NCBI GenBank assembly: GCA_045634645.1
Contig: JAZRAQ010000006.1
Coordinates: forward strand, 10,365 to 74,364
DNA from: Acutalibacteraceae bacterium
GTDB lineage: Bacteria > Bacillota > Clostridia > Oscillospirales > Acutalibacteraceae
Direction: 5' to 3'
Length of the DNA: 64,000 bases
Shown: one piece after another, positions 11,569 through 28,462 of the stretch
Layout of the letters: every line of letters begins with the position of its first letter
Numbering within the stretch: the stretch's first letter is position 1
The notes under the pieces: generated by a model
Database searches by the model: none
What the model saw: only the letters and a program-made list of their open reading frames with translations
Told to the model about the DNA's origin: nothing
Made by a program: the position numbers and the translations under genes

Positions 11569-11570
11569 TG

Positions 11571-11600
11571 AAAGAGATGCGAATTTATCGCATCTCTTTT
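11571..11600. terminator. Bidirectional terminator hairpin
   Basis: AAAGAGATGCGA ... TCGCATCTCTTT perfect stem between convergent genes. Confidence 0.8.
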
Positions 11601-11601
11601 G

Positions 11602-12414
11602 CTATAACAGATAATCTGGTAAATCTCTAATGTAAGTTTGTTTTGGTTGGATTTTTGGTTTACTTTTAATAGTCGGTTTTTTATCAAACTTTCCAAGTGC
11701 GAAAGATTTTGGCGAAATTCCCGTCACCCTTTTAAACGCATAAGAAAAATATGACTGGCTGGAAAACTCTAAAATTTCTGCCACTTTAGTTATACTTTCA
11801 CCCGCAAGCAAAAATTCCTTTGCTTTATTCACTTTTAAATTTAAATAATATTCATGAGCCCCAATATTTGCATATTTAGAAAAAATACGCTTTAAATGAG
11901 AAAGACTTATATTAAGCATATCGGCCAATTCATCAACCGAAAAAGTAGACATCATGTATTTGTTCATTATGCCAATCGACTTTTTGAATAAAATTGTATC
12001 GCGCTCTTCAGCTGGCAAAAGATTACTTTCATTTGTAGCACAAAAACTCAAGCAAATTTCTAATGCCGATTGCATATCAAATATATAATTTTGGTTCGCC
12101 TCACAAAGCGAAGAAAACAACCTGCTTTCTTCTTCATCAAGTTTTAAAGTCTTTCCTCTCAAATCATAAAGTTGATTATCGTTTGAACTAAAATCGAATA
12201 TTTTATAATCTGCATTATCTTTTGAATTTACATAATAAAAATCCTCAGGAGAAATTATCAATGCGCTAAAAGGTGTTAAAAAATATACGGAGTCATTCAA
12301 AGTTACTGTTAGCTCGCCCGACAGCAAATAAAGCAGTTTCCAATTTTTTTCGCCTATCAGCATATTAAACTCATCTATTTTATCATTTTGTGAAATGAAT
12401 TCTATGTTCATCAT
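11602..12414 (-). CDS. AraC family transcriptional regulator (cupin-like N-domain plus C-terminal HTH)
   Basis: C-terminal dual HTH (VDELADMLNISLSHLKRIFSKY ... ITKVAEILEFSSQSYFSYAFKRVTGISP). Confidence 0.85.
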   Translation of the reverse strand: MMNIEFISQNDKIDEFNMLIGEKNWKLLYLLSGELTVTLNDSVYFLTPFSALIISPEDFYYVNSKDNADYKIFDFSSNDNQLYDLRGKTLKLDEEESRLFSSLCEANQNYIFDMQSALEICLSFCATNESNLLPAEERDTILFKKSIGIMNKYMMSTFSVDELADMLNISLSHLKRIFSKYANIGAHEYYLNLKVNKAKEFLLAGESITKVAEILEFSSQSYFSYAFKRVTGISPKSFALGKFDKKPTIKSKPKIQPKQTYIRDLPDYLL

Positions 12415-12464
12415 TTTTGCACCGTCCTTAAACTATAATGTGTATTTTATTAGATTATAGTTCA

Positions 12465-12492
12465 ATTATATCACATATTAACTATTTGTCAA
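12465..12492 (-). promoter_or_regulatory. Sigma-A-type promoter for the AraC gene
   Basis: Minus strand TTGACA (12492-12487), 16-nt spacer, TATAAT (12470-12465). Confidence 0.6.
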
Positions 12493-12494
12493 TA

Positions 12495-12530
12495 TATAAA
12501 AATTCCGTACAGAACACTGTACGGAATTTT
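12495..12530 (-). terminator. Terminator closing the BMC operon (after pduL)
   Basis: AATTCCGTACAG-AACA-CTGTACGGAATT 12-bp stem with a T-run on the minus strand, directly after the pduL stop. Confidence 0.8.
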
Positions 12531-12533
12531 AAA

Positions 12534-13181
12534 TTATTTAACTATCTTTACTTTAAAACCATTGCCTATACCTGCGGCATTCGCATCGTCAGTATCAATG
12601 TGCATTTCAAGTCTGAATGCTTTATTGACACGAACCTGAACATCATAGAATGTAGTTCTTCTCTCTCCTTCAATTTCAACCGTTACATAATCTCCATCGT
12701 TGAGGCCGAACTGTTTGCCCTCTTCGTCACTCATATGTATATGACGGTTAGCAATTATACAACCCTCTTTAAGAGTTACTGTGCCTTTAGGTCCGATAAT
12801 TGTTATCGGCGCAGAGCCTTTAATATCACCCGACTCGCGTACAGGAGGTTTAACCTTTAATGTAAAAGAGTCGGTACGGGAAATTTCAACCTGAGATTCC
12901 TTACGGATTGGTCCCAAAACTCTTACACCCTCAATAGCGCGAAGTGAAGGACCGATAATTGTCAACTGCTCTTTACAAGCAAACTGACCAGGTTGTGACA
13001 AATCCTTAATAGGTGTTAATTCGTATCCTTTGCCGAAAAGAATTTCCAAATGCTCGGCACTTAAATGTATATGACGGTTTGAAACGCCCACCGGAACGGT
13101 ATCATTGCTATTCCCGCCATTTTGACACTGAGCAATAACACGATTTACTATCTCGGCTACTAATTGTGCATCATAAGCCAT
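12534..13181 (-). CDS. pduL: Phosphate propanoyltransferase PduL
   Basis: Duplicated PduL signature (VGVSNRHIHLS and ANRHIHMS). N-terminal amphipathic helix AQLVAEIVNRVIAQ followed by a G/N/S linker. Confidence 0.9.
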   Translation of the reverse strand: MAYDAQLVAEIVNRVIAQCQNGGNSNDTVPVGVSNRHIHLSAEHLEILFGKGYELTPIKDLSQPGQFACKEQLTIIGPSLRAIEGVRVLGPIRKESQVEISRTDSFTLKVKPPVRESGDIKGSAPITIIGPKGTVTLKEGCIIANRHIHMSDEEGKQFGLNDGDYVTVEIEGERRTTFYDVQVRVNKAFRLEMHIDTDDANAAGIGNGFKVKIVK

Positions 13182-13197
13182 AATTCATACCTCGCAA

Positions 13198-14640
13198 TTA
13201 AATGATTCTAAAGCTGTCTGCCATTACGCAACGGCGTTGACGAGTAAAACTACGGGCAGAAGTTATACCCTCACCTGTTGGACCTGCAATTGTAAATGTT
13301 GCATGACCTTCACCGCCGAAACCGATACCTGCATAAGAAGGTGCATTCTTAACGAAAATTGTAGTTTCAACTGCACGTGCAAAAGCAGACAAATGGTCAA
13401 TATTTTTTGAGTGCATGTGTGCAGTATGGCGATTGCCGTGTTCTGCTTTAACTGCCAATTCAATAGCTTGTTCAATATTATCAACACGAACGATAGGAAG
13501 AATAGGCATCATAAGTTCTTCTTGAACAAAAGGATGATTGAAATCGGTTTCGCAAATAATACAACGAATGTCCTTACTTACGTTTATACCTATTTTTGCA
13601 AGAATTACATCCGCATCTCTGCCAACACAGTCGCGGTTAACAATCTTTTTAACATTTCCTTTCTTGTCTTTTTTATCAACAAGAACTATATCTGCCAACT
13701 TATTAGCCTGCTCAGCATTTATCATATAGGCGCCGTTTTTAAGCATTGAGGAGATTAACTCATCTGCTATATTGCGGAAAGCAAAAACTTCTTTTTCTGC
13801 GATACAAGGTAGGTTGTTATCAAAGGTGCAACCGTCAATAATATCCTTACCCGCCTTTGCAATATCTGCAGTATCGTCTACGATAACAGGTGGGTTGCCT
13901 GCGCCCGCGCCGATTGCCTTTTTACCTGAAGAAAGCACTGCTTTAACAACGCCGGGACCGCCTGTGCATACGAGCAAACGAACAAGCGGATGTGACTGCA
14001 TAATCGCTGCAGATTCCAAAGTAGGTTTAACCATTGAGCAAACCAAAACCTCAGGGCCGCCTGCAGCCTTAGAAGCGCGGTTTACAAGGTCTACTGCATA
14101 GTTAGAGGTGGCGATTGCATTTGGGTGTGGGTTGAAAACAACGCCATTACCTGCAGCAATCATACCGATACTGTTACAAATTACAGTTTCACTTGGATTG
14201 GTACTTGGTGTTATAGCGCCAACTACACCAAACGGCGCCATTTCTACCAAAGTAAGACCGCTATCACCTGTTTTAGCATTTGAAAGAATATCCTCGGTAC
14301 CAGGGGTTTTATCTGCAACCAAGATATGCTTTAAGCGTTTATGCTCTACCTTACCCATTCCTGTTTCGCTAACGCCTAATTGAGCCATAATCGGAGCTTC
14401 TGCTCGGGTTAAACGGCGAATTTCAGTAATAATAGCCTCTCTTTTTTCAACCGACATTGCACGAACAGCTAAATAAGCCTTTTGAACCTCGGCAATAGCA
14501 TCATTCATATCTGCATAAACACCAACAAACTTACGGGGACCGTAATGTGTGCTGTCCCAATCGGTTGTGTTTCCAGTTTGCATTTTATTAAGCACAAGGC
14601 TTACTACCTCGCGAATTTCAGCTTCAGAAATATTAGCCAT
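13198..14640 (-). CDS. pduP: CoA-acylating (propion)aldehyde dehydrogenase, PduP/EutE-like
   Basis: ALDH fold with catalytic Cys context NNLPCIAEKE. N-terminal helix EAEIREVVSLVLNKM. Length 480 aa. Confidence 0.88.
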   Translation of the reverse strand: MANISEAEIREVVSLVLNKMQTGNTTDWDSTHYGPRKFVGVYADMNDAIAEVQKAYLAVRAMSVEKREAIITEIRRLTRAEAPIMAQLGVSETGMGKVEHKRLKHILVADKTPGTEDILSNAKTGDSGLTLVEMAPFGVVGAITPSTNPSETVICNSIGMIAAGNGVVFNPHPNAIATSNYAVDLVNRASKAAGGPEVLVCSMVKPTLESAAIMQSHPLVRLLVCTGGPGVVKAVLSSGKKAIGAGAGNPPVIVDDTADIAKAGKDIIDGCTFDNNLPCIAEKEVFAFRNIADELISSMLKNGAYMINAEQANKLADIVLVDKKDKKGNVKKIVNRDCVGRDADVILAKIGINVSKDIRCIICETDFNHPFVQEELMMPILPIVRVDNIEQAIELAVKAEHGNRHTAHMHSKNIDHLSAFARAVETTIFVKNAPSYAGIGFGGEGHATFTIAGPTGEGITSARSFTRQRRCVMADSFRII

Positions 14641-14646
14641 ACTTAA

Positions 14647-15840
14647 TTACTCCTTACAAAATTTTGCGGTATCTAACGCAATCATATATTCCTCATTGGT
14701 AGGTATTACCAATGTTTTAACCTTTGCATTTTTAGCCGAAATATCTGCATCAACACCTCTGGTTTGGTTTAATTCATTATCAATTTCAATACCAAAGAAG
14801 TCCATATTTTCGCAAACCTCTTGTCTTAACCAAGCGCTGTTTTCACCGATACCTGCAGTGAAAACTAATGCGTCAATTCCGTTTAATTCGGCAATATAAC
14901 TGCCTACTATCTTTTTGATACTGTTCACAAGTATCTTTTGAGCAAGTCTTGCTCTGTAATCACCTGAATTTGCAGCGTCTGTAACCTTACGGCAGTCGTT
15001 TGAAATACCGCTCACGCCCAAAAGACCGGATTTGCGGTTTAATATATCTTCAATCTCATCAGCGTTTAGGTTTTTAGTTTTCATAATATAAGGGATAACT
15101 GTTGGGTCGATACTTCCGCTTCTTGTACCCATTGGAAGTCCTTCTTGTGGGGTGAAACCCATTGAAGTATCAATTGCAATTCCCTTATCAACCGCTGTAA
15201 TTGAAGAACCGTTACCCAAGTGACAAGTAATAATTTTAAGTTCTTCGATAGGTTTTCCTAACATTTCTGCCGCTTTAGCCGAAACATAGCGGTGAGAAGT
15301 GCCGTGGAAACCGTAACGGCGGATTTTATTTTCAGTATAAAATTCATAAGGTATCGGGTATATAGTACGAAAATCTTCCATTTGTGAATAGAAAGAGGTG
15401 TCAAACACCGCAACCTGAGGAACTTCTTTCATAAGTCTTCTGCAAGCGTTAATACCCTTAATTGCCGGAGGTCCGTGCAAGGGATTAATCGGCACAATGC
15501 CTTCAAGATACTCGATTGCCTCATCATCAATAAGCGAAGATGCCTTGAATTTTTCGCCGCCGTGAGCCACTCTGTGACCTACAGCACCAATTTCATCAAT
15601 ACTTGCAATCACACCGTATTCCTTGCTAACAAGCAAATCAAGAACTATTGAAAGTGCTTTTTCGTGGTCAGCAAGTTCTACCTGCATCTCGTGTTTTTTA
15701 TCGCCGTATTTATGGGTTACAGAACCCATCTTATCGCCGATACATTCACAAAGTCCCTTTGCTAAAACATCGCCTGTTTGCATATCAAACAATTGATACT
15801 TAAGCGAAGAACTACCTGCATTAACTACCAAAATTTTCAT
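14647..15840 (-). CDS. ackA: Acetate/propionate kinase
   Basis: MKILVVNAGSSSLKYQLF start and ASKHA motifs (HRVAHGG, FHGTSH). RBS GGAGG. Confidence 0.92.
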   Translation of the reverse strand: MKILVVNAGSSSLKYQLFDMQTGDVLAKGLCECIGDKMGSVTHKYGDKKHEMQVELADHEKALSIVLDLLVSKEYGVIASIDEIGAVGHRVAHGGEKFKASSLIDDEAIEYLEGIVPINPLHGPPAIKGINACRRLMKEVPQVAVFDTSFYSQMEDFRTIYPIPYEFYTENKIRRYGFHGTSHRYVSAKAAEMLGKPIEELKIITCHLGNGSSITAVDKGIAIDTSMGFTPQEGLPMGTRSGSIDPTVIPYIMKTKNLNADEIEDILNRKSGLLGVSGISNDCRKVTDAANSGDYRARLAQKILVNSIKKIVGSYIAELNGIDALVFTAGIGENSAWLRQEVCENMDFFGIEIDNELNQTRGVDADISAKNAKVKTLVIPTNEEYMIALDTAKFCKE

Positions 15841-15851
15841 ACCAAAACCTC

Positions 15852-16610
15852 CTAGTAAACTAATTCTACGCCCTTATCTTTAAAATACTCTACCCATTTT
15901 TCAGAAGGTTGTTCATCAGTTACTACTGTATCAATATCATTTAATTCACACACGTGAACAAAAGAAATTTTATCAAACTTAGTACCATCTACTGCGAGAA
16001 TTTTGCGGCTTGCGGCTGAGAATATAGCACCTTTAATTTCTGAATCTTTTTCATTAGAATCAGTAACGCCCATATTCATATCAATACCCTTTGAAGAGCA
16101 AATTGCCAAATCAACATGAAAGCCTCTAATCATTCGCTCGGCAGAGGCTCCTACCAAGGATAGCGCTCCTTTTTTAAGCGAACCGCCGGTTGAAAGAATT
16201 TTCCAATCGCTTTTATCAGCCAATTCTATTAATATTTCAACCGAATTTGTTATCAAGGTAATATCTTTTTTATTAGTTATAGCCTTCGCCACATAGATTG
16301 CAGTGGAACTTGCATCAAGCATTATATAGTCGCCGTCATTAATCATTTGAGCAATTGTTTCAGCGATTTTTTGCTTCCGCTCTACATTAGCGCGCTTACG
16401 CACATTAAAAGGCAAATCAACATTCAAATTCTGATTTATTACCGCGCCGCCGTAGGTCTTGGTAGCAAGACCTTCATTGTCAAGTTTTTCAAGGTCACGG
16501 CGAATAGTTTCTTCAGTAACATCAAACTCACGGCTTAAATCTGTAACGATTACTTTGCCTTCGGCATTCAATTTCGCAAGTATTGCATTACGTCGTTCTA
16601 TCGCGAGCAT
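15852..16610 (-). CDS. DeoR/GlpR family transcriptional regulator embedded in the BMC operon
   Basis: N-terminal wHTH (ERRNAILAKLNAEGKVIVTDLSREFDVTEETIRRDLEKL) plus a sugar-phosphate-binding C-domain. ATG at 16610 lies 8 nt after AAGGAG; the track start at 16616 is a TTG. Confidence 0.88.
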   Translation of the reverse strand: MLAIERRNAILAKLNAEGKVIVTDLSREFDVTEETIRRDLEKLDNEGLATKTYGGAVINQNLNVDLPFNVRKRANVERKQKIAETIAQMINDGDYIMLDASSTAIYVAKAITNKKDITLITNSVEILIELADKSDWKILSTGGSLKKGALSLVGASAERMIRGFHVDLAICSSKGIDMNMGVTDSNEKDSEIKGAIFSAASRKILAVDGTKFDKISFVHVCELNDIDTVVTDEQPSEKWVEYFKDKGVELVY

Positions 16611-16624
16611 ATTCAATACTCCTT

Positions 16625-17173
16625 TTAAAGAATTTTACTCCAGAATTTTTTATCGGGGCGGGGGATAACTGCGCTGTCCAAGAACATACCATTCTCGCCC
16701 GCGCCTTGTTTTGCGCGCTCGATAGCGGCCTCAACAGCGGCAATTTCGCCTGTTAAGAGTAAGTAAGATTTTCCGCACATACCGCGCGCCAAACGTAGTT
16801 CGATTAAATCTACAAGCGCAGTTTTTGCGGCAATATCTGCAGCAACTACTGCGGCAGATGCTGAAAATGTTTCCAACACACCCAATGCATTCGGGTTACC
16901 GATATCGGTAGCACCGTAAAGCGCTGAGAAAATTGAATCGTGCGGATTTCCTAAAACAAATGTATCAATCAACTGTTCGCTATCCTGTGCGGCAGCGGCT
17001 TCAACAGCAGCGTTAACTGCGCTTAAGTCACCACTTATAAGCGCCAAAAATTTACCGGGGCAAACAGTATCTGCCTGTAACAATTCCACCTCAGCGGTTT
17101 TAACCATACGGTCAGCCGCTCTCATACCGGAGGAAACCGTTTTCATTTCTATCATACCTATTGCTTTTTTCAT
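16625..17173 (-). CDS. pduT: Tandem-BMC-domain shell protein, PduT-like (BMC-T)
   Basis: 182 aa with two BMC domains. Conserved Cys in TVCPGKF corresponds to the PduT pore [4Fe-4S] ligand position. Confidence 0.85.
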   Translation of the reverse strand: MKKAIGMIEMKTVSSGMRAADRMVKTAEVELLQADTVCPGKFLALISGDLSAVNAAVEAAAAQDSEQLIDTFVLGNPHDSIFSALYGATDIGNPNALGVLETFSASAAVVAADIAAKTALVDLIELRLARGMCGKSYLLLTGEIAAVEAAIERAKQGAGENGMFLDSAVIPRPDKKFWSKIL

Positions 17174-17186
17174 TTCAAGTCCCCTC

Positions 17187-18515
17187 CTATTCCACGGAAA
17201 TTATTATATTCTTTTGGGTAACGTCTACAACCTTACCCGTAAGAGAAGCGTGTATTCCAACGCTTAAAGCATCATCCATCGGTTTTGCAATTAATTGTCC
17301 CTCAGTCACATTATCACCTTTTTTAACTATAGGCTTAGCAGGTGCGCCGATATGCTGTGACAAAGCAATTACAAGTCTTTTTACCTTAACCTGCTTTTCG
17401 GTTATGGGAGCAGATTTATTGTAAGGCTCAAGCCCTAATCTTGCTCTCAACCTTGAAACAGGTATCATTCGAAGCGGTCTTGTTGAGTCGACATCACTCA
17501 TATCAGGGTTTTGAGGCGGTTTTACACCGTTCTGTCTCAATACGCCCTTTGTAGCATTTAACAGTGCTCTTGGTGACAAACTTTGGTTGCAAGAGTATGC
17601 TTCACAAAGTCCGCAACCTGAACAAAATGCAGCATTTATATAAGGTGTTGCATCATTTGTTACCGAATGAGCGGCAGCGTTCATTAATGCGCTCGGATCA
17701 ATCGGGTGTCCTAAAAGGTGACGCGGGCAAAGCGAAGTGCAATAATTACACTGACAGCAAGCCGACATCGCTCTTCTAATGTCAATTGAAGTATTAGTTT
17801 GCTTTCTTTGTATCAAAGGCATATCCTTTGGCAAAACCAAAACCGCATTGGTTGTTTTAGTAACGGTTTGTGACGGAGAACCTAAAGTTCCCATCATTGG
17901 GCCGCCTAAAAGATACGCAGGGTCTTTAATAGTAACTCCTCCTGCCATATCTACAAGCTTTTCAATAGGTGTTCCGATAGGAGCATATACCGTAACGGGA
18001 TTTTTAACTTCTCCAATTACTGTTACATACTTGTGTGTAACGCCCTCTCCATTCATTGCTTTATATACATTGTAAACGGTTTCAACGTTAAGCACTGTAA
18101 CACCGACAGAAAGCGGTATCTGACCTGCGGGTACTACCCTACCGGTCGCTTCATAGGTAAGCACTACCTCATCTCCCGCGGGATAAATTTCAGGCAAGGT
18201 GCAAACCTTCATATTATTAAAGGAAGAAATTTCTGCATTAACGGCATCAACGGTTTCTTTATAAGAAGCCTTTATGCCTATTATGACATTTTCTACTCCT
18301 ACAATTTTCGAAATTTCATAAAGTGTACTTAAAATTTCATAAGTATACTTTTTAAGTACCTGACGGTGCAAGCGCAAAAGCGGCTCACATTCCGCGCAGT
18401 TTAAAATTAAAGTATCGGCTTTGGGTGACAATTTTGCGTATGTAGGGAAACCTGCGCCGCCCGCACCGACAACTCCTGCTTGTCGCAAAAGTTCTTTTAA
18501 TTCTTCGATATTCAT
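17187..18515 (-). CDS. pduS: PduS/RnfC-like flavin and 2x[4Fe-4S] oxidoreductase
   Basis: GVVGAGGAGFPT nucleotide-binding motif, two ferredoxin clusters (CCQCNYCTSLCP, CSGCGLCEAYSC) and a barrel-sandwich-like C-terminus. Confidence 0.85.
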   Translation of the reverse strand: MNIEELKELLRQAGVVGAGGAGFPTYAKLSPKADTLILNCAECEPLLRLHRQVLKKYTYEILSTLYEISKIVGVENVIIGIKASYKETVDAVNAEISSFNNMKVCTLPEIYPAGDEVVLTYEATGRVVPAGQIPLSVGVTVLNVETVYNVYKAMNGEGVTHKYVTVIGEVKNPVTVYAPIGTPIEKLVDMAGGVTIKDPAYLLGGPMMGTLGSPSQTVTKTTNAVLVLPKDMPLIQRKQTNTSIDIRRAMSACCQCNYCTSLCPRHLLGHPIDPSALMNAAAHSVTNDATPYINAAFCSGCGLCEAYSCNQSLSPRALLNATKGVLRQNGVKPPQNPDMSDVDSTRPLRMIPVSRLRARLGLEPYNKSAPITEKQVKVKRLVIALSQHIGAPAKPIVKKGDNVTEGQLIAKPMDDALSVGIHASLTGKVVDVTQKNIIISVE

Positions 18516-18793
18516 TAACCTATCACTCCGGCAAGGCCAGTACCGGCATCAATTATACCGACAATTGCCGCATCAACGGGAGATTCTGCCATATCGCAGC
18601 CAATTCTTGCAGCGCTTCCGGTAGCAACTAAAACAAGCTCACCGATACCTGCGCCGATATTATCAATAGCAACGATTTTTTTGTTTGGCTCACCCAATTC
18701 GGCAATGGGTTCTACAACCATAAATTTACAGCCGATAAGATTTTCGTTTTTTCGTGTGGAAACTACGCTTCCTACTACTTTTCCGACTATCAT
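18515..18793 (-). CDS. pduN: BMC vertex pentamer (EutN/CcmL/PduN family, BMC-P)
   Basis: MIVGKVVGSVVSTRK canonical N-terminus. ATG at 18793 lies 5 nt after AGGTGA; the track start at 18802 is a GTG. The stop overlaps the pduS start (TAATG). Confidence 0.88.
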   Translation of the reverse strand: MIVGKVVGSVVSTRKNENLIGCKFMVVEPIAELGEPNKKIVAIDNIGAGIGELVLVATGSAARIGCDMAESPVDAAIVGIIDAGTGLAGVIG

Positions 18794-18833
18794 CGTTTTC
18801 ACCTGTTCTTTCGTATAATAAAGGGTGTCAACC

Positions 18834-18859
18834 GAGGGGGAGTTTTATTCTTCCCCCTC
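18834..18859 (-). promoter_or_regulatory. GC-rich intra-operon RNA hairpin between the shell hexamer genes and pduN
   Basis: GAGGGGGA (18834-18841) pairs with TCCCCCTC (18852-18859) across a 10-nt loop. There is no following U-run on the transcribed strand. Confidence 0.5.
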
Positions 18860-18889
18860 AATAGTTAACAAAACAGATACCTACTCAAA

Positions 18890-19168
18890 TTATTTAAGTG
18901 TGGGTAGGATTTTTTCCACATCGTCATGAGGACGGGGAATTACGTGTGTAGCAACTAACTCGCCTAAACGAGAAGCTGAAGTAGAACCTGCTTCAACTGC
19001 AGATTTAACTGCTCCAACATCGCCACGTACCATAACAGATACAAGACCAGAACCGATTTTTTCGGTACCGATAAGTTGTACATTTGCAGCTTTAACCATT
19101 GCATCAGCAGCTTCTATAGCAGCTACTAAACCTCTGGTTTCTACCATACCTAATGCTTCAAGTGCCAT
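18890..19168 (-). CDS. pduA: BMC-H shell protein (PduA/PduJ-like)
   Basis: 92 aa. [30 protein letters not shown]...[20 protein letters not shown] aligns residue-for-residue with PduA. RBS GGAGGA. Confidence 0.92.
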
Positions 19169-19197
19169 TTTTTTATCCTCCTAAATTAATTTGCAAA

Positions 19198-19566
19198 TTA
19201 TTTCAAGGTGGGGAGAATATTCTCCACATCACCGTGAGGGCGGGGAATTACATGAGTTGCAACTAACTCACCCAAGCGGGAAGCAGATGTGCTACCTGCC
19301 TCAACAGCAGATTTAACTGCTCCAACATCGCCACGAACCATAACGGTTACACGACCGGAACCGATTTTTTCGGTGCCAACGAGTTGAACATTTGCAGCCT
19401 TAACCATTGCATCAGCAGCTTCAATTGCAGCTACTAAACCTCTGGTTTCTACCATACCTAATGCTTCAAGTGCCATTTTCTTTACCTCCTTTTTGGGTGC
19501 TTTAACCTCGGTTTTTTCAACCGGTGTTTCTACTTTTTTTGCGGTGGTTGTTTTGTTCTCAGCCAT
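19198..19566 (-). CDS. BMC-H shell protein, near-identical paralogue, with an optional 30-aa Lys/Thr/Glu-rich N-terminal extension
   Basis: The core differs from 18890-19168 at 5 residues (I33V, L42R, S44T, D82G, K86N). An internal ATG at 19476 is preceded by AAGGAGGT at 7-nt spacing. Confidence 0.85.
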
Positions 19567-19571
19567 GAGAT

Positions 19572-19865
19572 TTACCTACCTTTCTTAGCAATTCGAGCAG
19601 CGCTTATTTGAAGTAAACGCCAGGTTTCTTCGTGGGGACTTGCAATTACAGCACTTGCAACCGGCTTTTTAAGACCGTTTGCAACGGCATTTTCAACTGC
19701 GGCGCTTACCGCAGAAACATCGCCTTGTACAATCACTGTTACAAGTCTTCCACCTAACTTACGTTCCCAAGTAACAAATTCAACATCTGCTGATTTGCAC
19801 ATAATGTCTAAACAATCTATCGCAGCAGTTACGCCCGATACTTCAATCATTCCTAATGATTTCAT
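19572..19865 (-). CDS. Divergent BMC-H shell protein with a basic C-terminal tail
   Basis: BMC fold pattern [28 protein letters not shown]...[10 protein letters not shown]. The pore loop is RKLGGRL instead of EKIGSGL. Confidence 0.8.
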
Positions 19866-19880
19866 TTTAATCTCTCCTAA

Positions 19881-20156
19881 TTAGAACTTGGGGAGAATTT
19901 TTTCAACATCCTCATGAGGACGGGGGATTACGTGTGTAGCTACCAATTCGCCTAAAGCAGATGCAGTAACGCTGCCAGCTTCAACAGCAGCCTTTACAGC
20001 GCCAACATCACCGCGTACCATAACAGATACAAGGCCTGAACCGATTTTTTCAGTACCGATTAACACTACTTCCGCAGCCTTAACCATAGAGTCTGCTGCT
20101 TCGATTGCTGCGGTAAGACCGCGGGTTTCTATCATACCAAGTGCTTGCTTTACCAT
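19881..20156 (-). CDS. BMC-H shell protein (PduA/PduJ-like)
   Basis: 91 aa. [30 protein letters not shown]...[20 protein letters not shown]. Confidence 0.92.
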
Positions 20157-20182
20157 TTTGAGTTTCCTCCGATTATTATAAT

Positions 20183-20497
20183 TTAATTTTTATCAAATGC
20201 GTTTAATTTTAGCATCGGCTCTGTGTCCGATTCGGTGCGAGTAATAATGTGTGAGGTCACAACGCCTGAAACCTTTTCGGCTGCTGCTTTTGCAGCTTCA
20301 ACAGCGGCTTCAACATCGGTAACATTGCCACGGAATTTTACCGCAACAATTAGCGGAACTTCCATTGATTCTGCATTGCCGGGCTTGTTCTTGTCAAAAT
20401 GCTCTACCGTAACATTCGCCGCCTTGCATCCGGCGTCACACGCTACAAAAGCAGTTACAAGACCGTAAACCTCAACTATTCCGGTTGCATTTCCCAT
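20183..20497 (-). CDS. BMC-domain shell protein, divergent single-domain type with an insertion
   Basis: 104 aa. [24 protein letters not shown] ... [17 protein letters not shown] follows the BMC-domain pattern, with an extra [13 protein letters not shown] segment in place of the usual pore loop. Confidence 0.75.
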
Positions 20498-20514
20498 TTT
20501 AAAATACCCCCGAA

Positions 20515-21714
20515 TTATTTATTAACAATCGCAATCTTCAAACCTTCCATCTTAAGATTGGTTTGTAGTGCCTCGTTGATTTGTTCTAACGGATATTTGT
20601 GAGTAATAAGTTTTTGCATCGGAAGTCCGATTGCTTTAGCACGCTTAAGGAAATCAAATGTTGTTGCATAATCGCGAAGAGTGTATACCCAAGAACCAAC
20701 TGTTGTAATTTCTTTAGCGCAAATATCAAAGTGGGGGTTAATCGTAGCATCGCCACCGTTGATGAAGAAACCTAATTCACAAAGTCCGCCACCGTTACGG
20801 ATGAACTTATAGATATTGCTGTGTGCTACAGGAGAACCTGTGCATTGGAAAGCAAAATCTGCTTCGTATCCGCCGAAAGCATCCTTAACCGCGCCGCTCA
20901 ATGCCTCAATACCCTTATGGTCTTTGAAGTTTACGGTATGGTCTGCGCCCATTTCGCGAGCGAAGGAAAGCCTCTTTTCTTCACCGTCAACCGCAACAAT
21001 GTTTTCAATACCCATTGTGCGTAAAATTGCAATACAGATAAGACCGATAGGTCCGCAACCTTGTACTACAACACGGCTGTTAAAACGAAGAATACCTGTT
21101 GTTTTTGCACGCTCTACTGCGTGAATTAAAACTGCGCATGGCTCAATTAAGATTCTTGAATCTAAATCAAGGTCGCTTACATTAAATACTGTTGAACCGC
21201 CACGAACTAATATGTAATCACTGAACCAACCGTTTAGGTGGATGTCGTCATCAGGAAGAAGACCGTAAACATCAGCACCGCCAACATTTTGTTTGTTAAG
21301 GTCGTACATAGTGATGTCCGGATTGTCCTTAAATATCATACAGGTTACAACCTTATCGCCAATCTTCAAAGGCTTACCTGCGCTGTCCTTCTTAACATTT
21401 TTACCCATCTTAACAATCTCGCCTGTGCCCTCATGACCGAGCGCTACAGGGATAAGGCCGAACGGGTCACGCTTGAACTCGTGCGCGTCAGTACCGCAAA
21501 CACCGCAACCTTCAACCTTTACGAGAATGTCATCATCGCCAACTGCCGGCATTGGATATTCTTTAATTTCGAACTTTTCAAGACCGGTTAGCATTGCAAC
21601 ATGGGCAGTTGAAGGAACATTGCCGGAAGGTGCTGATGAAGTAGAAGACGTTCCCTTCATATCAGACAAAACCTGACGGACAATAGCTTCAATATTAGAA
21701 GAATTAATATCCAT
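20515..21714 (-). CDS. Zinc-dependent medium-chain alcohol dehydrogenase with an N-terminal encapsulation-peptide-like extension
   Basis: MDR motifs CGVCGTDAHE, GHEGTGEIV and GCGPIGL. About 45 extra N-terminal residues: helix IEAIVRQVLSDM then an S/T/P-rich linker. Confidence 0.85.
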   Translation of the reverse strand: MDINSSNIEAIVRQVLSDMKGTSSTSSAPSGNVPSTAHVAMLTGLEKFEIKEYPMPAVGDDDILVKVEGCGVCGTDAHEFKRDPFGLIPVALGHEGTGEIVKMGKNVKKDSAGKPLKIGDKVVTCMIFKDNPDITMYDLNKQNVGGADVYGLLPDDDIHLNGWFSDYILVRGGSTVFNVSDLDLDSRILIEPCAVLIHAVERAKTTGILRFNSRVVVQGCGPIGLICIAILRTMGIENIVAVDGEEKRLSFAREMGADHTVNFKDHKGIEALSGAVKDAFGGYEADFAFQCTGSPVAHSNIYKFIRNGGGLCELGFFINGGDATINPHFDICAKEITTVGSWVYTLRDYATTFDFLKRAKAIGLPMQKLITHKYPLEQINEALQTNLKMEGLKIAIVNK

Positions 21715-21716
21715 AA

Positions 21717-22193
21717 CTAATTTCTGCCTTTCTCAAATAATTGTTTTCCGTATTCTGCCAAAGCAGTGTCCTGTTCTTCTGTTCCGCCGCTTACTCCTAA
21801 TCCGCCGATTATATCACCCTTGCTGTTACACAAAGGCTCACCACCGCCGAAAATCACAATTTTACCGCCATTGGTAAACTGTATTCCGTAAAGTGAACCG
21901 CCGGGTTGGCTTAACGGTTTTAACTGAGAAGTAGACATTTTAAGGGATACTACCGTAAAGGCTTTGTTAACCGCTACATCGTAGCTTGCAATATATGAAT
22001 CATCCATACACTCTACCAAAACGGGATTTCCCGCATTGTTAGATATTGCAACTACAGCATTAACACCCATTTGGGCAGCCTTTTCGCGTATCTGTTCACT
22101 CAAAGCGCGTGCTTGTGATAAAGAAATATTACCCTTTACACCCATTTCATGAACAATAGTATCCACTATTTTCTGTAAAGCATGTGTATCCAT
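21717..22193 (-). CDS. GlcG/DUF336 (PduO C-terminal-domain-like, haem-binding family) protein
   Basis: 158 aa. GVNAVVAISNNAGNPV ... GGLGVSGGTEEQD is typical of DUF336. N-terminal helix ALQKIVDTIVHEM. Confidence 0.75.
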   Translation of the reverse strand: MDTHALQKIVDTIVHEMGVKGNISLSQARALSEQIREKAAQMGVNAVVAISNNAGNPVLVECMDDSYIASYDVAVNKAFTVVSLKMSTSQLKPLSQPGGSLYGIQFTNGGKIVIFGGGEPLCNSKGDIIGGLGVSGGTEEQDTALAEYGKQLFEKGRN

Positions 22194-22204
22194 GCTAACA
22201 CCTC

Positions 22205-22996
22205 TTACTTACCGAGAGATTCAAGCACCTTGCGGGTAATTTCAGCAACCATATCTGCATCCTTACCGTGTGAGCAGTTGCCACCGCAACCGTGACAGCT
22301 TGGTTTGCCATCCTTAGCGTTGGGGCAGAGGTTTGCAGGATGCTTACCTGTCATACCAAACTGACGGCGGATTTCATATAAGCGCTGTACTTGAGATTCA
22401 GAAAGTTCCTTAGGACCGCCGAGTTGGTTAGAAATATAAAGAAGATTTGCATAGAATTCAAGCGATTCCATTTTGTGATAAGCATTTAAAAGGCTGTCAG
22501 AGTAAGAAAGTGCACCGTGATTTTCCAAGAGTACAGCATCAAAATACTGGAGATGTTCAGAAACTGCATCTGGAATTTCTTCTGTAGAAGGTGTGCCGTA
22601 TTTAGCAATCGGAACGCAACCGAGAGCAATTACAGCTTCAGGCATAATAGGTTGAGTTAGCGGAATACCTGCAATTGCAAAGCCTGTTGCATACATTGGG
22701 TGAGCGTGAACTACTGCCTTAACGTCAGGACGCTCTTTGTATACACGCATGTGCATTTTAATTTCTGATGAGGGTTTGAAACCGGGGTTGGCTTGAATAA
22801 CCTTACCGTCACGGTCAACCTTACAAATGTATTCAGGAGTCATAAAGCCCTTACTTACACCTGTAGGTGTGCAAAGAAATTCGTTTTCGCCAATTTTTAC
22901 GGAAATGTTACCGTCATTAGCTGCAACCATTCCTCTGTCATAGATGCGTTTACCGATTTCGCAAATCTGTTTTTTAATTTCAAATTCATTTACCAT
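22205..22996 (-). CDS. fucA: Class II aldolase (L-fuculose-1-phosphate / L-rhamnulose-1-phosphate aldolase-like) with a C-terminal extension
   Basis: NDGNISV, the metal-His context VVHAHPMYATGFA, and LLENHGALS. A C-terminal 42-aa extension carries a Cys/His-rich segment plus the amphipathic helix DMVAEITRKVLESL. Confidence 0.85.
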   Translation of the reverse strand: MVNEFEIKKQICEIGKRIYDRGMVAANDGNISVKIGENEFLCTPTGVSKGFMTPEYICKVDRDGKVIQANPGFKPSSEIKMHMRVYKERPDVKAVVHAHPMYATGFAIAGIPLTQPIMPEAVIALGCVPIAKYGTPSTEEIPDAVSEHLQYFDAVLLENHGALSYSDSLLNAYHKMESLEFYANLLYISNQLGGPKELSESQVQRLYEIRRQFGMTGKHPANLCPNAKDGKPSCHGCGGNCSHGKDADMVAEITRKVLESLGK

Positions 22997-23045
22997 TTTG
23001 GGTTTCTCCTTTGAATTTATTTGTTTTTTATTTTACTATGGATAA

Positions 23046-23074
23046 ATATTACCATAATTAATAACTAAAGTCAA
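23046..23074 (-). promoter_or_regulatory. Internal sigma-A-type promoter upstream of the aldolase gene
   Basis: Minus strand TTGACT (23074-23069), 17-nt spacer, TAATAT (23051-23046), inside the only long intergenic gap (114 nt) in the upstream half of the locus. Confidence 0.5.
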
Positions 23075-23110
23075 TAGAAAAATCTGTTTTTTTCTGTTTT
23101 TTTGTGTTTT

Positions 23111-23560
23111 TTATTTGGTTTTGTGTGGTTTTAGGTGTTCGATTATGTCCGAAACGCCCTCGCCGCTCTTTGAATTTACAAAAAATACCTTTTTGCAACC
23201 CGAAAGTTTTAACCACTGTTCTGCTCTTGCGGGGTCCGCTTTGTCGATTTTGGTTACCACTCCCACAACCTCACGGTTCACAAGGCAGGTAATACAGGGC
23301 GGAAAAAGTGAATAATCGTCATCTGCTGCAATCAAAAGCGCTACCACATCCGCCTCGTAAGAGTAGAGCGCCAACGCCGCGCCTAAATCGTGATTTTCGG
23401 CGTATTCACCGGGCGAATCAATTAAGAAATCGTTAAAAACCATACCTTGTGTTTTTTGGTAGTGAAGTTTTTCACCCCGAAGCGCTTGGGTTAAGGAAGT
23501 TTTTCCGCAACCGCTGCGACCTATCAAAAGCAGTTTTTTTAAGTCCTGGTTATTTCGCAT
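23111..23560 (-). CDS. pduV: EutP/PduV family small GTPase
   Basis: P-loop [16 protein letters not shown], and a TKID NKxD-like motif. 149 aa. Confidence 0.85.
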
Positions 23561-23913
23561 ACGGCAAAACCTAACTTATTTATTGCATATTCGGTTACTG
23601 CGGTCAGCGCCGCCTCAACCTGAGAAACTGTACCGGTTACAATTACTGTACCGCTAAAGCGGTCAACAAACCCTAATTCTACACCCGAAGCCTTCATAGC
23701 AATATCGCCTGCGATGATTGCCGTTTCGCTTGGTGAAAGGGTTAGTATTCCGATTGCGCCGGAATGTTCTTCGGAAGGGTCTAATCCCAACTTGTAATAA
23801 AGCACTTTATCAGGATTAGCGATTATGTGCGCCAAGGTAATTTGCTTACCCGGAACTATCTCCTGAATTATACGCGCCTTATTATCAGACGAGAGATAAT
23901 CTTCTAAATTCAT
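23539..23913 (-). CDS. pduU: Circularly permuted BMC shell protein (PduU/EutS type)
   Basis: 124 aa. [20 protein letters not shown] ... [33 protein letters not shown] matches the PduU/EutS pattern. Confidence 0.85.
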
Positions 23914-23917
23914 TTTA

Positions 23918-24709
23918 TCAACCTCCCAAATGTGTAGTTAGTCCGTATGCCTTGCAAACACCGATTAGTTCTTGCATTTTTTCGTTCGTAGGCGAGGGTA
24001 TATCCCCCATTAAGTATTCTCGGGAAAGTCCGTCATACTTATCCTTACCCATACGGTGATAAGGCAACAGATGAATTTCGTTTACATTAGGTAAACGGGA
24101 AGTAAACTGGGCAATCAGTCCAACTTCTTCGGTTGTATCATTAAAGGTCGGTATTACCGGAACTCTAATAATTAAGCGTTTAGCCTTTTCGGCAATCAAA
24201 CGGGCATTTTTTAATATCAGCGCGTTCGGTCGGGTGGTAAATTCCTCATGCTTTTTAGTGTCGATATGTTTTATATCCATCAAAAAAGTATCAACATAAG
24301 GAATAAAGCGTTCTATCGTTTGCCACTCGGCAAAACCGGTAGTTTCGATTGCAGTGTTAATACCGTTTTCTTTAGCCGCTTTTAATAAAGCGACTGCAAA
24401 ATCGGGTTGCACCAAACATTCACCGCCCGAGAGGGTTAAACCGCCGCCGCTTCTGCGGTAGTAAGGACGGTCACGCATTACCTCTTCAAGTACTTCCCCC
24501 ACCGTGACATCGCGGCCTATGGTTTTCATTTTGCCTTTTTGAAGCATCTGCTGAATTTCATAGGACTGCGATTCGGGGTTGCAACACCAACGGCACCTTA
24601 AGGGGCACCCCTTTAAGAACACTATTGTTCGCACACCCGGTCCATCGTGGGTTGAGAAACGCTGAATATCAAATATTCTGCCCTTCACATTATATATATC
24701 ATTTGTCAT
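23918..24709 (-). CDS. Glycyl-radical enzyme activating enzyme (radical SAM)
   Basis: [13 protein letters not shown] (CX3CX2C) and the [13 protein letters not shown] motif. The start directly abuts the GRE stop codon. Confidence 0.92.
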
Positions 24710-27238
24710 TTAGAAATCTCCCTGCTCGGTACGGTTAATAATATCATCCTGAAGCGAGCGTGAAAGTGTTGTGAAAAGTGCGCTATAGCCTGCAACACGA
24801 ACAACCAATGATTTATATTTTTCAGGGTTCTTTTGGGCATCGCGCAAGGTTTCTCTGCTGACAACATTAAACTGCATATGGCTTCCCTTTTGGTCAAAGT
24901 AGCCTCTAACCAAAGCTACAAAGCTTTCAAGACCGCTTTCCCCCGCCAAGGCTGTCGGATGGAACTTCATATTAAACAAGGTTCCGTTTGACGCAATATA
25001 ATGGTCTAATCTTGAAACAGAGTTTGCCGCAGCGGTCGGTCCCTTAACATCTCTGCCTGCCGCAGGTGAAACACCGTCTGCCACAGGGGTATTTGCCAAA
25101 CGACCGTCAGGCGTAGCGCCTGTTTGCGCACCAAGCGGTACATTTGCCGATACAGGATAAAGTCCCGCTTGATACTGACCGCCTCTTGGATTTTTATAAT
25201 TAAGCATCGGTCTTGTGTATGTATAGGCAACGTCTCTTGCAAAAGCGTCAACCTCATCATTATCATTACCGAACTTTTCAAGTGCCTCTATCTTTTCAAG
25301 CAAATCCGAATACTTTTGCTTTTGCTCGTCATTGCAGTTATTTTTAACCACTGTTTCGTAAATAGTCTGCACGTCTTCGCGAGAGAGCATTTTGCCGTCT
25401 TCAACAAGTTTTTTAGCTACGTCTGCAGTAATCTTTTCGGCAATCTTTGAATCCATATCCTTGCCGTAGTTATTGTCAAGCGCTTCTTTATAGTCGGCCA
25501 TTGTAACACTTTTTTCTTCAAAAACAAGTTTTTTAATTGCATATAAAGCGTCCGCCATATTTGCAATACCAAAACCTTGAGGACCTGTGAAGTTATAAAT
25601 AGCGCCGCCCTCTTGAAGACTTTTTCCTCTGCCGATACAATCCTCAACCATACAGGATTGGAAAGGAAGCGGACAACGCTCCGCATGAGCCAAGTCAATT
25701 GCGTTATCTGCATTAACAAGCAGTTCTATAAAGTATGTCATCTGCTTTTTATAAGCGTCATAAAATTCTTCAAAGGTGGTCATTTTAGTAACATCGCCTG
25801 TCTGAAGACCTAACTGAACGCCCTTGTCAACACCGTTTGAGAAAACTAACTCAAGGGGTCTGCACATATTAAAGAATGCCGCATCGTGCCAACCGTCAGT
25901 CTTGGCTGATTTTTGAGGTTCAACACAACCGATTATATTATAGTCACGCGCATCCTCTAAAGTTAAGCCTCTGCTTTGAAGTGACGGAATAATAACCTCG
26001 TCATTATAGTAAGCAGGAAGTCCCACGCCCGTTCTTGTAACCTCTGCCGCGCGAAGCATAAATTCGTGAGGTGTTCCATTCCAAACGCGAACAGAAAATG
26101 AAGGTTGAGGTAAGTTCACGTGTAAGGTAGCGTTCATACACATATATGAAATATCGTTTGTAGCATCCTTACCGTTAGAATCCTGACCGCCTACAATAAG
26201 GTTTTGGAAAAGGCTGTAACCCGCAAAGCCTTCTGCAGAAGCCGCATCACGAACTTTATTAAGGTCGTTTAGTTTAACCCAGATACAGTCAATCAATTCC
26301 TGAGCAAATTCACGGGTAATCGTACCTTTTTGCAAATCTGCTTCATAATACGGATTCATATATTGGTCAAATCTACCGGGAGAAATTGAATGTCCGCTGG
26401 ATTCTGTTTGTAAAAGCATTTGCACAAACCAGAAAGACTGACAAGCTTCATAAAAAGTGGTTGCGCCCTCGGCAGGTACTCGTTCACAGTTTTTGGCAAT
26501 CTGTAAAAGCTCCGCCTTGCGAGTCTCATCTGCACAATTTTGAGCCTCTTCTTTTGCTAAAGTAGCATATCTTTTAGCATAATCACAAACCGCATTACAA
26601 CTAATGATTACTGCTTGCAAGAAATTATATCTCTTTGCATAATCCTCATCAGCTACGCTAAGCTTTGCAATAGCTTCTTCAGTTTCTTTTATAATTCCCT
26701 TGTAGCCTATTTTTAAAACTTTGCCGTAATCAACGGTCAAATGGCCGATACCGTTATAAAAATAGTTGCCGGGAGTGAAAATATTATGGTCAATAGCAGC
26801 CAAAGCCTCAGGAGACATATAAGCGGTTGCCAATTCGCTTGTTGTTTTACCTGCCCAATAAGGATAAACTTTTTTAAGGATTTCCTTTGTCTGTTCGGAT
26901 ATGTAAAACGGGTCGGCGCTTCTGGTTGCCACAGTGTCAAACTCATCCTGTAGCCAGGTGTATGAATATTCGGGGAATACCTGACATCCGCGAGGAGCCT
27001 TTGTGTTGCTGCCGACAATCAATTCCAACGGACGAATCGTAATAGGAAGTTTTTCTAATATATGTGCAAAAGCCTTTGCTCTTCGCAAAATTATAGGCAA
27101 ATTTTCGGTTTGCTTATAGCTTTCGGTTAAAAGCACGGCGCGGTCAGCCTCAATTTCGGGCATTTTAGCAAACAAATGCTCAATCAACTGAGGAATACGA
27201 GCTGATTTTTCAATTTTTTCAGTATACACTGTCTTCAT
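24710..27238 (-). CDS. Glycyl radical enzyme, B12-independent diol (1,2-propanediol) dehydratase type
   Basis: 842 aa. Glycyl radical motif VVRVAGYSALF near the C-terminus. Thiyl loop IIGCVEPQKSAKTDGWHDAAFFN resembles glycerol/propanediol dehydratases rather than CutC, judged from memory of those motifs. Confidence 0.85.
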   Translation of the reverse strand: MKTVYTEKIEKSARIPQLIEHLFAKMPEIEADRAVLLTESYKQTENLPIILRRAKAFAHILEKLPITIRPLELIVGSNTKAPRGCQVFPEYSYTWLQDEFDTVATRSADPFYISEQTKEILKKVYPYWAGKTTSELATAYMSPEALAAIDHNIFTPGNYFYNGIGHLTVDYGKVLKIGYKGIIKETEEAIAKLSVADEDYAKRYNFLQAVIISCNAVCDYAKRYATLAKEEAQNCADETRKAELLQIAKNCERVPAEGATTFYEACQSFWFVQMLLQTESSGHSISPGRFDQYMNPYYEADLQKGTITREFAQELIDCIWVKLNDLNKVRDAASAEGFAGYSLFQNLIVGGQDSNGKDATNDISYMCMNATLHVNLPQPSFSVRVWNGTPHEFMLRAAEVTRTGVGLPAYYNDEVIIPSLQSRGLTLEDARDYNIIGCVEPQKSAKTDGWHDAAFFNMCRPLELVFSNGVDKGVQLGLQTGDVTKMTTFEEFYDAYKKQMTYFIELLVNADNAIDLAHAERCPLPFQSCMVEDCIGRGKSLQEGGAIYNFTGPQGFGIANMADALYAIKKLVFEEKSVTMADYKEALDNNYGKDMDSKIAEKITADVAKKLVEDGKMLSREDVQTIYETVVKNNCNDEQKQKYSDLLEKIEALEKFGNDNDEVDAFARDVAYTYTRPMLNYKNPRGGQYQAGLYPVSANVPLGAQTGATPDGRLANTPVADGVSPAAGRDVKGPTAAANSVSRLDHYIASNGTLFNMKFHPTALAGESGLESFVALVRGYFDQKGSHMQFNVVSRETLRDAQKNPEKYKSLVVRVAGYSALFTTLSRSLQDDIINRTEQGDF

Positions 27239-27298
27239 ATATAATATACCTCCGTTAAAATCTCGCTAAAGGACACTACTTCACACTAATTTACTAAC

Positions 27299-27327
27299 AT
27301 TTTAACATAAAACCACATGCTTGTCAA
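27299..27327 (-). promoter_or_regulatory. Primary sigma-A-type promoter of the BMC locus
   Basis: Minus strand TTGACA (27327-27322), 17-nt spacer, TAAAAT (27304-27299). About 55-nt leader, RBS GGAGGT. Confidence 0.65.
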
Positions 27328-27486
27328 TAGCAAAACCACAAAAAAACAGAAAAACAACGAATAAAACCAAATATTATGTTAATCATCATAAACGACCTAA
27401 ATTCAAAAAAACACATTATTTTAACAGATTTTTTCTTTACATATATTCATTGTTTTGTTAAAATAATTATAAAGGAGGAAATTATT

Positions 27487-28425: not shown

Positions 28426-28428
28426 TAC

Positions 28429-28462
28429 AAAAAAGCCGATGCTTTACGCATCGGCTTTTTTT
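28429..28462. terminator. Bidirectional terminator
   Basis: AAAAGCCGATGC-TTTAC-GCATCGGCTTTTTT. Confidence 0.85.

Follow-up and report, generated by a model that had tools for sequence, protein, structure and literature searches.

A 64-kb stretch of DNA from an Acutalibacteraceae bacterium (contig JAZRAQ010000006.1), referred to here as the window, carries a long gene cluster for a bacterial microcompartment (BMC) with a glycyl radical enzyme (GRE). All coordinates are positions in the window, and genes were called from an open reading frame (ORF) listing and from Pfam scans. The cluster consists of 19 co-directional genes on the minus strand, between positions 12534 and 27238. In the direction of transcription it begins with the GRE, its activase, a PduU-type BMC protein, a PduV GTPase, a class II aldolase, a DUF336/HbpS-like protein and a Zn-dependent alcohol dehydrogenase (Zn-ADH), continues with a block of hexamer-type shell genes (BMC-H) for proteins of 104, 91, 97, 122 and 92 amino acids (aa), and ends with PduN, PduS, PduT, a DeoR regulator, an acetate/propionate kinase, a CoA-acylating aldehyde dehydrogenase (ALDH) and PduL. 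The spacing between genes is -22 to 29 nt, with two exceptions, namely gaps of 114 nt between pduV and the aldolase gene and of 87 nt from the end of the BMC-H block to pduN. No gap within 12534–27238 has room for an additional ORF. An earlier note on this DNA had counted 21 genes, but its list consisted of the 19 genes and two items which are not genes (a promoter and a hairpin). The order and strand which it gave were correct, and each gene identity was upheld by Pfam.

The two boundaries of the cluster which had been proposed are real. Promoter P1, for the genes of the GRE, the activating enzyme, PduU and PduV, is located at 27299–27327 on the minus strand (TTGACA-17-TGtTAAAAT; 11 of 12 consensus matches and an extended -10 TG), and in 47 related loci the equivalent position upstream of the GRE gene is kept. 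At the other end, an intrinsic terminator at 12499–12530 (minus strand) consists of a 14-bp stem followed by a U run; its folding free energy is -19.5 kcal/mol (z = -7.5), and 0 of 200 shuffled sequences folded equally well.

The GRE (842 aa; 24710–27238, minus strand; Pfam PFL-like and Gly_radical, PF02901 and PF01228) is predicted to be a B12-independent 1,2-propanediol dehydratase. Its top match among all PDB sequences was 5I2A, the crystallised diol dehydratase of Roseburia inulinivorans (1268 bits); the alignment was a single ungapped stretch of residues 8–841 to residues 8–841, with 65.1% identity over 834 residues, in which Gly817, Cys438, Glu440 and His166 are kept. All other PDB matches aligned in two pieces with a break at about 593/654. 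Thus, the GRE contains an insertion of approximately 60 residues, at about residues 594–653, which is the segment least conserved with respect to 5I2A (30% identity) and which non-BMC GREs lack. Such an insertion has been described as the internal encapsulation peptide of the dehydratases of the GRE-associated microcompartment (GRM) classes GRM3, GRM4 and GRM5 (PMC6325248, PMC5311937). By scores and alignment the enzyme groups with the 1,2-propanediol dehydratases and has the insertion, as is expected for GRM5. The earlier note would have been wrong if the GRE were a choline lyase, which is not the case: the score with the CutC model TIGR04394 was 597 bits versus a cut-off of 1050, and CutC structures scored 508–594 bits. 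The NCBIfam equivalog models for HypD, HpfG and HpsG were likewise all far below their cut-offs. Choline lyase, hydroxyproline dehydratase, sulfopropanediol dehydratase and pyruvate formate-lyase (PFL) were thus ruled out on the PDB and NCBIfam scores.

The second-best solved relative was the glycerol dehydratase of Clostridium butyricum (1R8W, 1052 bits), and NCBIfam placed the GRE only in the general PFL2/glycerol-dehydratase subfamily. Both results would be compatible with a B12-independent glycerol dehydratase in a compartment handling 3-hydroxypropionaldehyde. This appears extremely improbable, since 5I2A matches better and is collinear throughout, even across the BMC-type insertion of 60 residues which is missing from glycerol dehydratase. 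Also, the co-encoded aldolase and lactaldehyde reductase would yield propanediol, not glycerol, and in published trees the GREs of GRM5 loci cluster with 1,2-propanediol dehydratases (PMC6325248).

The activase is a radical-SAM enzyme of 263 aa (23918–24709, minus strand; PF04055 and TIGR02494) with the motif CxxxCxxC at residues 35–42. TIGR02494 aligned in two stretches, skipping profile positions of about 45–92, i.e., the ferredoxin-like insertion is absent, and no dicluster ferredoxin domain was found by the Pfam scan of the 263 residues. An activase without this insertion of about 70 aa has been stated to be unique to GRM5 (PMC6325248).

The gene at 22205–22996 (minus strand) encodes a FucA-like aldolase of class II, which carries at its C-terminus a linker containing four cysteines and a helix of the encapsulation-peptide kind. 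Aldolase_II (PF00596) matched residues 10–185 with 173 bits, and the closest structures were those of FucA (6BTD, 91 bits). Glu78, His97, His99 and His160, which we take to be at the positions of the zinc ligands of FucA, are kept. Identity to characterised FucA enzymes is only about 30%, and the scores were below every NCBIfam equivalog cut-off (FucA, 124.6 versus 264; RhaD, 59.8 versus 170), with a 3-oxo-tetronate-4-phosphate decarboxylase model as the top sub-threshold match. Since the protein is below both the FucA and the RhaD cut-offs, the sequence does not decide between fuculose phosphate and rhamnulose phosphate. The low identity and the sub-threshold scores could also suggest that the enzyme uses a different ketose-1-phosphate and releases another aldehyde (e.g., glycolaldehyde from a pentulose-1-phosphate), and that the alcohol dehydrogenase (ADH) and the GRE process the matching diol. 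We consider this very unlikely, because a response to fucose and rhamnose is known for the orthologous loci of Clostridium phytofermentans and R. inulinivorans (PMC3557285), and the orthologue of the GRE, 5I2A, is a dedicated propanediol dehydratase.

The C-terminal extension of the aldolase comprises about 50–75 residues and ends in an amphipathic helix, VAEITRKVLESLGK. Between the catalytic domain and this targeting helix the motif C224-x9-C234-H-x-C237-x3-C241 is found; in the linker region (within residues 214–263) the conserved sequence is GKHPA-x-LCPN-x7-SCHxCGGxC, with Cys224, 234, 237 and 241 and His235, just ahead of the helix. The cysteine motif is invariant or almost so in 32 homologues, and at least four cysteines are present there in 77 of 80 loci. 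In a published survey the linkers of aldolases had been described as unconserved (PMC4594438). The segment may bind a metal or an Fe-S cluster. An AlphaFold2 model of the aldolase, built with a 32-sequence alignment, had a mean pLDDT of 36.9 and was not usable, since none of the available homologues is less than 82% identical.

The Zn-ADH (20515–21714, minus strand; ADH_N and ADH_zinc_N, PF08240 and PF00107) is a medium-chain dehydrogenase/reductase and is predicted to be a lactaldehyde reductase and/or propanol dehydrogenase. The remaining enzymes, all on the minus strand, are a CoA-acylating ALDH of the PduP/EutE type (13198–14640; Aldedh; NF011927, 668 bits), the phosphotransacylase PduL (12534–13181) and an acetate/propionate kinase (14647–15840). 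They are accompanied by a PduS-type flavin/Fe-S oxidoreductase (17187–18515; Complex1_51K, SLBB, Fer4 and RnfC_N), a PduV/EutP-family small GTPase (23111–23560; PF10662, 152 bits), the DUF336/HbpS-like protein (21717–22193) and a DeoR-family transcriptional regulator (15852–16616). The Zn-ADH (NIEAIVRQVL, with a Ser/Ala/Pro linker), ALDH (EIREVVSLVL), PduL (VAEIVNRVI) and the DUF336 protein (LQKIVDTIV) have N-terminal amphipathic helices with low-complexity linkers after them. These helices, which resemble encapsulation peptides, and that of the aldolase are kept on the five enzymes across divergent loci. Targeting of cargo is predicted to proceed by terminal helices, C-terminal in the aldolase and N-terminal in the other four, and by the internal insertion of the GRE. 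The kinase begins directly with the catalytic fold and has no terminal extension; no such helix was found on it across the loci. Its location should thus be cytosolic, which agrees with the published opinion that this enzyme works outside the shell (PMC6620236).

Shell genes are likewise all on the minus strand and were recognised by Pfam. The circularly permuted PduU/EutS-type protein (23539–23913) matched 4AXI (127 bits) and PduU 3CGI (116 bits), i.e., it is related to EutS/PduU and is not GrpU-like; its single cysteine, residue 118, is away from what we take to be the position of the GrpU Fe-S motif. The BMC-H proteins are a 104-aa variant (20183–20497; also aligned to HO BMC-H), a PduA/J-like protein of 91 aa (19881–20156), a divergent protein of 97 aa (19572–19865), one of 122 aa with an N-terminal extension (19198–19566) and one of 92 aa (18890–19168). 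The vertex protein PduN/EutN (BMC-P; EutN/CcmL family) is encoded at 18515–18802, with translation probably beginning at the ATG at 18793, and the tandem-domain shell protein PduT (BMC-T), with Cys38 at the 4Fe-4S site, at 16625–17173. In the 104-aa protein a 9-residue insertion occupies the place where canonical hexamers have a short pore loop. Most of the related loci sampled share this insertion, and one might speculate about a modified pore for the bulky phosphorylated substrate or for dihydroxyacetone phosphate (DHAP). The extension of the 122-aa protein consists of 30 residues rich in Lys, Thr and Glu; the rest is almost identical to the adjoining 92-aa protein.

GRM5 loci are defined by a propanediol dehydratase-type GRE, an activase without the ferredoxin-like insertion, a PF00596 aldolase and a PF00107/PF08240 lactaldehyde reductase, furthermore by PduS and PduT in all loci, absence of GrpU, a DeoR regulator and a DUF336 protein (PMC6325248, PMC4207490). 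The window locus has all of these: a GRE and a short radical-SAM activase beside BMC shell genes, an aldolase with a predicted C-terminal encapsulation peptide, a Zn-ADH with both Pfam domains, PduS, PduT, DeoR and the DUF336 protein, as well as ALDH and PduL. The assignment to GRM5, a class which the earlier note had already regarded as known, can be maintained, with the diol dehydratase of R. inulinivorans as the best solved relative of the GRE. Other classes were rejected: the choline types GRM1 and GRM2 by the CutC scores given above, GRM3 because the locus has an aldolase and a Zn-ADH and its activase lacks the insertion, and a PVM-like locus because a GRE and an activase are present and co-oriented.

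The GRM5 loci of C. phytofermentans (Cphy_1174-1187) and R. inulinivorans contain the same families, namely the GRE, short activase, PduU, aldolase, Zn-ADH, ALDH, PduL, a BMC-H set, PduN, PduS, PduT and DeoR, and the predicted chemistry is the same. The order differs, since ALDH and PduL are at the 3' end after DeoR in the window, while in the Lachnospiraceae variant ALDH follows DUF336 and DeoR is last. In addition, the window locus has the acetate/propionate kinase and the PduV GTPase inside the operon, and its host, unlike these two species, belongs to an uncultured Oscillospirales (Acutalibacteraceae-like) lineage. GRM3 loci (Rhodopseudomonas palustris BisB18, E. coli) likewise have a glycyl radical propanediol dehydratase with an internal targeting insertion, ALDH, PduL and a shell, but no aldolase or lactaldehyde reductase, and their activase has the ferredoxin-like insertion which the window's lacks; between their GRE and those of GRM5, identity is only about 52% (PMC5311937). 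PVM and PVM-like loci share DeoR, acetate kinase, fucose or rhamnose as substrate and a homologous aldolase of class II, which has an encapsulation peptide at its C-terminus, but they are without GRE and activase, and their core enzymes process lactaldehyde directly. With the propanediol utilization (PDU) system of Salmonella the downstream pathway (PduP/PduL/kinase/ADH) and homologues of PduU, PduT, PduN, PduS and PduV are common; unlike the window locus, it uses a B12-dependent diol dehydratase, an Fe-dependent ADH (PduQ) and the regulator PocR, and has no aldolase.

The region is thus very probably an ordinary, intact GRM5 metabolosome locus of uncultured gut or rumen Clostridia, acting by the mechanism which the earlier note had proposed, i.e., a route from a sugar phosphate to propionate and propanol. 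This proposal stands. L-Fuculose-1-phosphate or L-rhamnulose-1-phosphate, formed elsewhere in the genome, would enter the shell and be split by the class II aldolase to DHAP and L-lactaldehyde, which the Zn-ADH would reduce with NADH to (S)-1,2-propanediol. The GRE, activated by the radical-SAM enzyme, would convert the diol to propionaldehyde, which the shell would retain. ALDH would then produce propionyl-CoA and NADH, the latter being able to cover the reduction of lactaldehyde; PduL would form propionyl-phosphate with recycling of CoA, and the cytosolic kinase would yield propionate and ATP. As an alternative sink, propionaldehyde could be reduced to propanol by the ADH. The predicted shell would be composed of four canonical or divergent BMC-H proteins, the BMC-H with the pore-loop insertion, PduU, the Fe-S protein PduT and the PduN pentamer, and PduS and PduT probably carry electrons across it, e.g., for activation of the GRE. 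Expression would proceed from two transcription units (P1 and P2), with a hairpin probably lowering expression downstream of the major shell genes, and control is presumably by the DeoR repressor. The GRM5 locus of C. phytofermentans was induced 15–87-fold on fucose and rhamnose, with formation of polyhedral bodies and of propanol and propionate (PMC3557285, PMC6325248). For GRM5, induction by these sugars, polyhedral bodies and the two products are known only from C. phytofermentans and R. inulinivorans (PMC3557285).

The earlier note had stated that no permease, isomerase or sugar kinase is present in the window, and this was borne out. Genes for a permease, an isomerase or a kinase for fucose or rhamnose were not found in the 64 kb, the remainder of which encodes housekeeping and exopolysaccharide functions; a block at 52–58 kb, resembling an ABC transporter operon by its ORF sizes, contains in reality exopolysaccharide glycosyltransferases and a flippase. 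This gap would suit a compartment which mainly consumes external, cross-fed 1,2-propanediol in the manner of GRM3 or PDU systems, with the aldolase and the lactaldehyde reductase being minor or vestigial. All steps from propanediol onward are encoded, and cross-feeding of 1,2-propanediol has been documented in gut and food consortia (e.g., PMC10880516). We regard this as unlikely. Of all proteins of the locus, the aldolase shows the highest conservation, with 79–95% identity across families among the best 80 of at least 583 matches, and it has a conserved promoter of its own and a conserved targeting tail; conservation of promoter and tail argues for strong selection on aldolase function. Moreover, according to locus tables, upstream sugar genes are also unlinked in experimentally studied systems (PMC3557285), and scavenging of propanediol and a sugar-fed role are not mutually exclusive.

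Several points weigh against the sugar-fed GRM5 route as given here. As a consequence of the missing genes for a fucose or rhamnose transporter, isomerase and kinase, the source of the ketose-1-phosphate is not seen in the window. The GRE is closely related to glycerol dehydratase as well, and the substrate of the aldolase, being below the FucA and RhaD cut-offs, is not settled by its sequence. A single ADH is encoded for two proposed reductions, and the reductant of lactaldehyde is a matter of dispute, with the Zn-ADH (PMC6325248) and PduS (PMC3557285) as candidates. The proposed function in the Acutalibacteraceae host is deduced from sequence and from relatives: the analysis shows genes and their order, homologies, catalytic residues and the conservation of promoters, hairpin and motifs, and from these the substrates, encapsulation, the pairing of regulator and operator and the flow of electrons are inferred.

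A scan for the aldolase with one genome per species gave at least 583 confirmed matches, of which the best 80 were retained; the sample of loci is thus biased to close relatives of the window aldolase. These 80 are from Acutalibacteraceae, Oscillospiraceae, Christensenellaceae and Lachnospiraceae, mostly metagenome-assembled genomes (MAGs) from gut or rumen, and the closest loci are in Acutalibacteraceae MAGs. Using tblastn of all window proteins against the related loci, 45 loci were found to be complete at the 3' end. The exact 19-gene order including the kinase occurred in 10 of the 45 (e.g., L001, L042, L045, L047, L057 and L073) and the same order without the kinase in 17; the order known from Lachnospiraceae and C. 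phytofermentans (ALDH after DUF336, PduL before PduN, DeoR last) was found in 13, and a third order in 5. The earlier note had considered the locus unusually self-contained, with kinase and regulator inside the operon. This view could not be kept, since DeoR is a defining ancillary gene of GRM5 and has the same internal position in the majority of complete loci (27/45); the kinase is at the same place in 10/45.

Four sister loci from Acutalibacteraceae (L006 10001–16692, L012 10001–19983, L021 1463–10126, and L008) have a near-identical aldolase, shell, kinase and PduL, the aldolases being 86–89% identical to that of the window, and are without GRE, activase, PduU and PduV; L006 also lacks the Zn-ADH and ALDH. 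The 10 kb upstream of loci of this type contain unrelated genes (citrate synthase, glucanotransferase and others). They look like GRE-less, "PVM-like" derivatives of GRM5.

The internal promoter before the aldolase gene, P2, which the earlier note had also listed, exists and is kept in relatives. It is located at 23046–23074 on the minus strand (TTGACT-17-TGgTAATAT) and would serve the genes from the aldolase through pduL. Almost all loci have a promoter TTGAC(T/A)-17-TGnTAnnAT in the gap that precedes the aldolase. Of 69 loci, 75% reached at least 10 of 12 matches, compared to 5.5% of shuffled gaps, and the 17-nt spacer and the TG occurred in almost all of them. Both promoter regions contain a repeated 9-mer, TGTGGTTTT. 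Two direct copies, TGTGGTTTT(G/A), at 27331–27340 and 27308–27317 (span 27308–27340, minus strand) flank the -35 of P1 and lie in its spacer; two copies upstream of P2 (23114–23133, plus strand) are inverted relative to the operon. In 52 GRE-upstream regions 80 copies were counted versus 6.5 ± 2.6 in composition-matched shuffles, and in 77 aldolase-upstream regions 151 copies versus 9.8 ± 3.0. This represents an enrichment of 12- to 15-fold against shuffles and of about 15-fold, in both promoter regions, against the rest of the loci, values which are inflated by kinship among the loci. The repeats are a candidate operator, for which DeoR would be the obvious candidate binder.

The second of the non-gene items listed earlier corresponds to a stem-loop rich in GC (GAGGGGGA...UCCCCCUC), which separates pduN from the BMC-H gene before it (18803–18889, minus strand; free energy -24.4, z = -2.56); it, too, is present and kept in relatives. 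In 42 related loci (examples are L001, L009, L025 and L027) the median z was -4.95, with 88% below -2, compared to a median of -1.4 for other gaps. Since the stem sequences differ among lineages, it is the structure and not the sequence which is kept; loci where PduL precedes PduN do not have the hairpin. It is likely a partial terminator or an element for mRNA processing or stability, and probably attenuates or stabilises transcripts, thereby setting the ratio of hexamers to pentamers and accessory proteins. An Rfam scan of 11000–28500 (E ≤ 1) gave only two sub-threshold small RNA matches and no riboswitch or leader RNA. In array data from C. phytofermentans, the genes from the GRE through PduU were induced 44–61-fold and those from the aldolase through the BMC-H genes 73–87-fold, with a drop from 49- to 26-fold from PduL to PduT (PMC3557285). 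By analogy, this profile fits an internal promoter and downstream attenuation; the second part of the parallel is only suggestive, because that gene order is generally without the pduN hairpin.

A tentative idea, which we consider possible but doubtful, is that the cysteine tail of the aldolase, beyond being a passive linker, could be a metal or Fe-S module for docking or redox gating of this first pathway enzyme in a compartment which has many Fe-S proteins as it is (PduS, PduT, activase), and that the dual TGTGGTTTT promoters together with the hairpin before pduN could form an undescribed regulatory layer of GRM5 operons that sets stoichiometry.

Downstream of the operon, an AraC-family regulator (11602–12414, minus strand; Pfam) has its own promoter, a perfect sigma-70 sequence (TTGACA-16-TATAAT, 12492–12465) directly past the terminator. 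An AraC-family neighbor is also found 3' of pduL in L006 and L021, so the system may have a second regulator in this protein. Upstream, an HflK/SPFH-like ORF on the plus strand (27376–28425) has its listed start only about 50 nt from P1. A promoter-like site on the plus strand at 27436–27464 precedes a Met near residue 37, and this Met (about 27484) is probably the true start; the divergent intergenic region would then be approximately 245 nt, not 137 nt. No genes of mobile elements adjoin the operon. The G+C content of the operon is 0.38–0.43, slightly above that of the flanks (0.34–0.39; 12000–27000 compared to flanks). Aldolase and Zn-ADH are 74–96% identical across the sampled loci, the aldolase at least 79% even across bacterial families. 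The G+C content and the cross-family identity suggest that the locus spread laterally among gut Clostridia.

GRM5 compartments are one route of gut anaerobes from fucose and rhamnose of host or diet to propionate and propanol, and the copy in the window adds little beyond another example. Loci of this type are very common among uncultured Oscillospirales, Christensenellales and Lachnospiraceae, with three recurrent gene orders, and the presence of kinase and regulator inside the operon is a common GRM5 sub-variant. The conserved P2, the hairpin, the repeat and the cysteine tail of the aldolase bear on the stoichiometry of shell and cargo and on induction, and could aid engineering.

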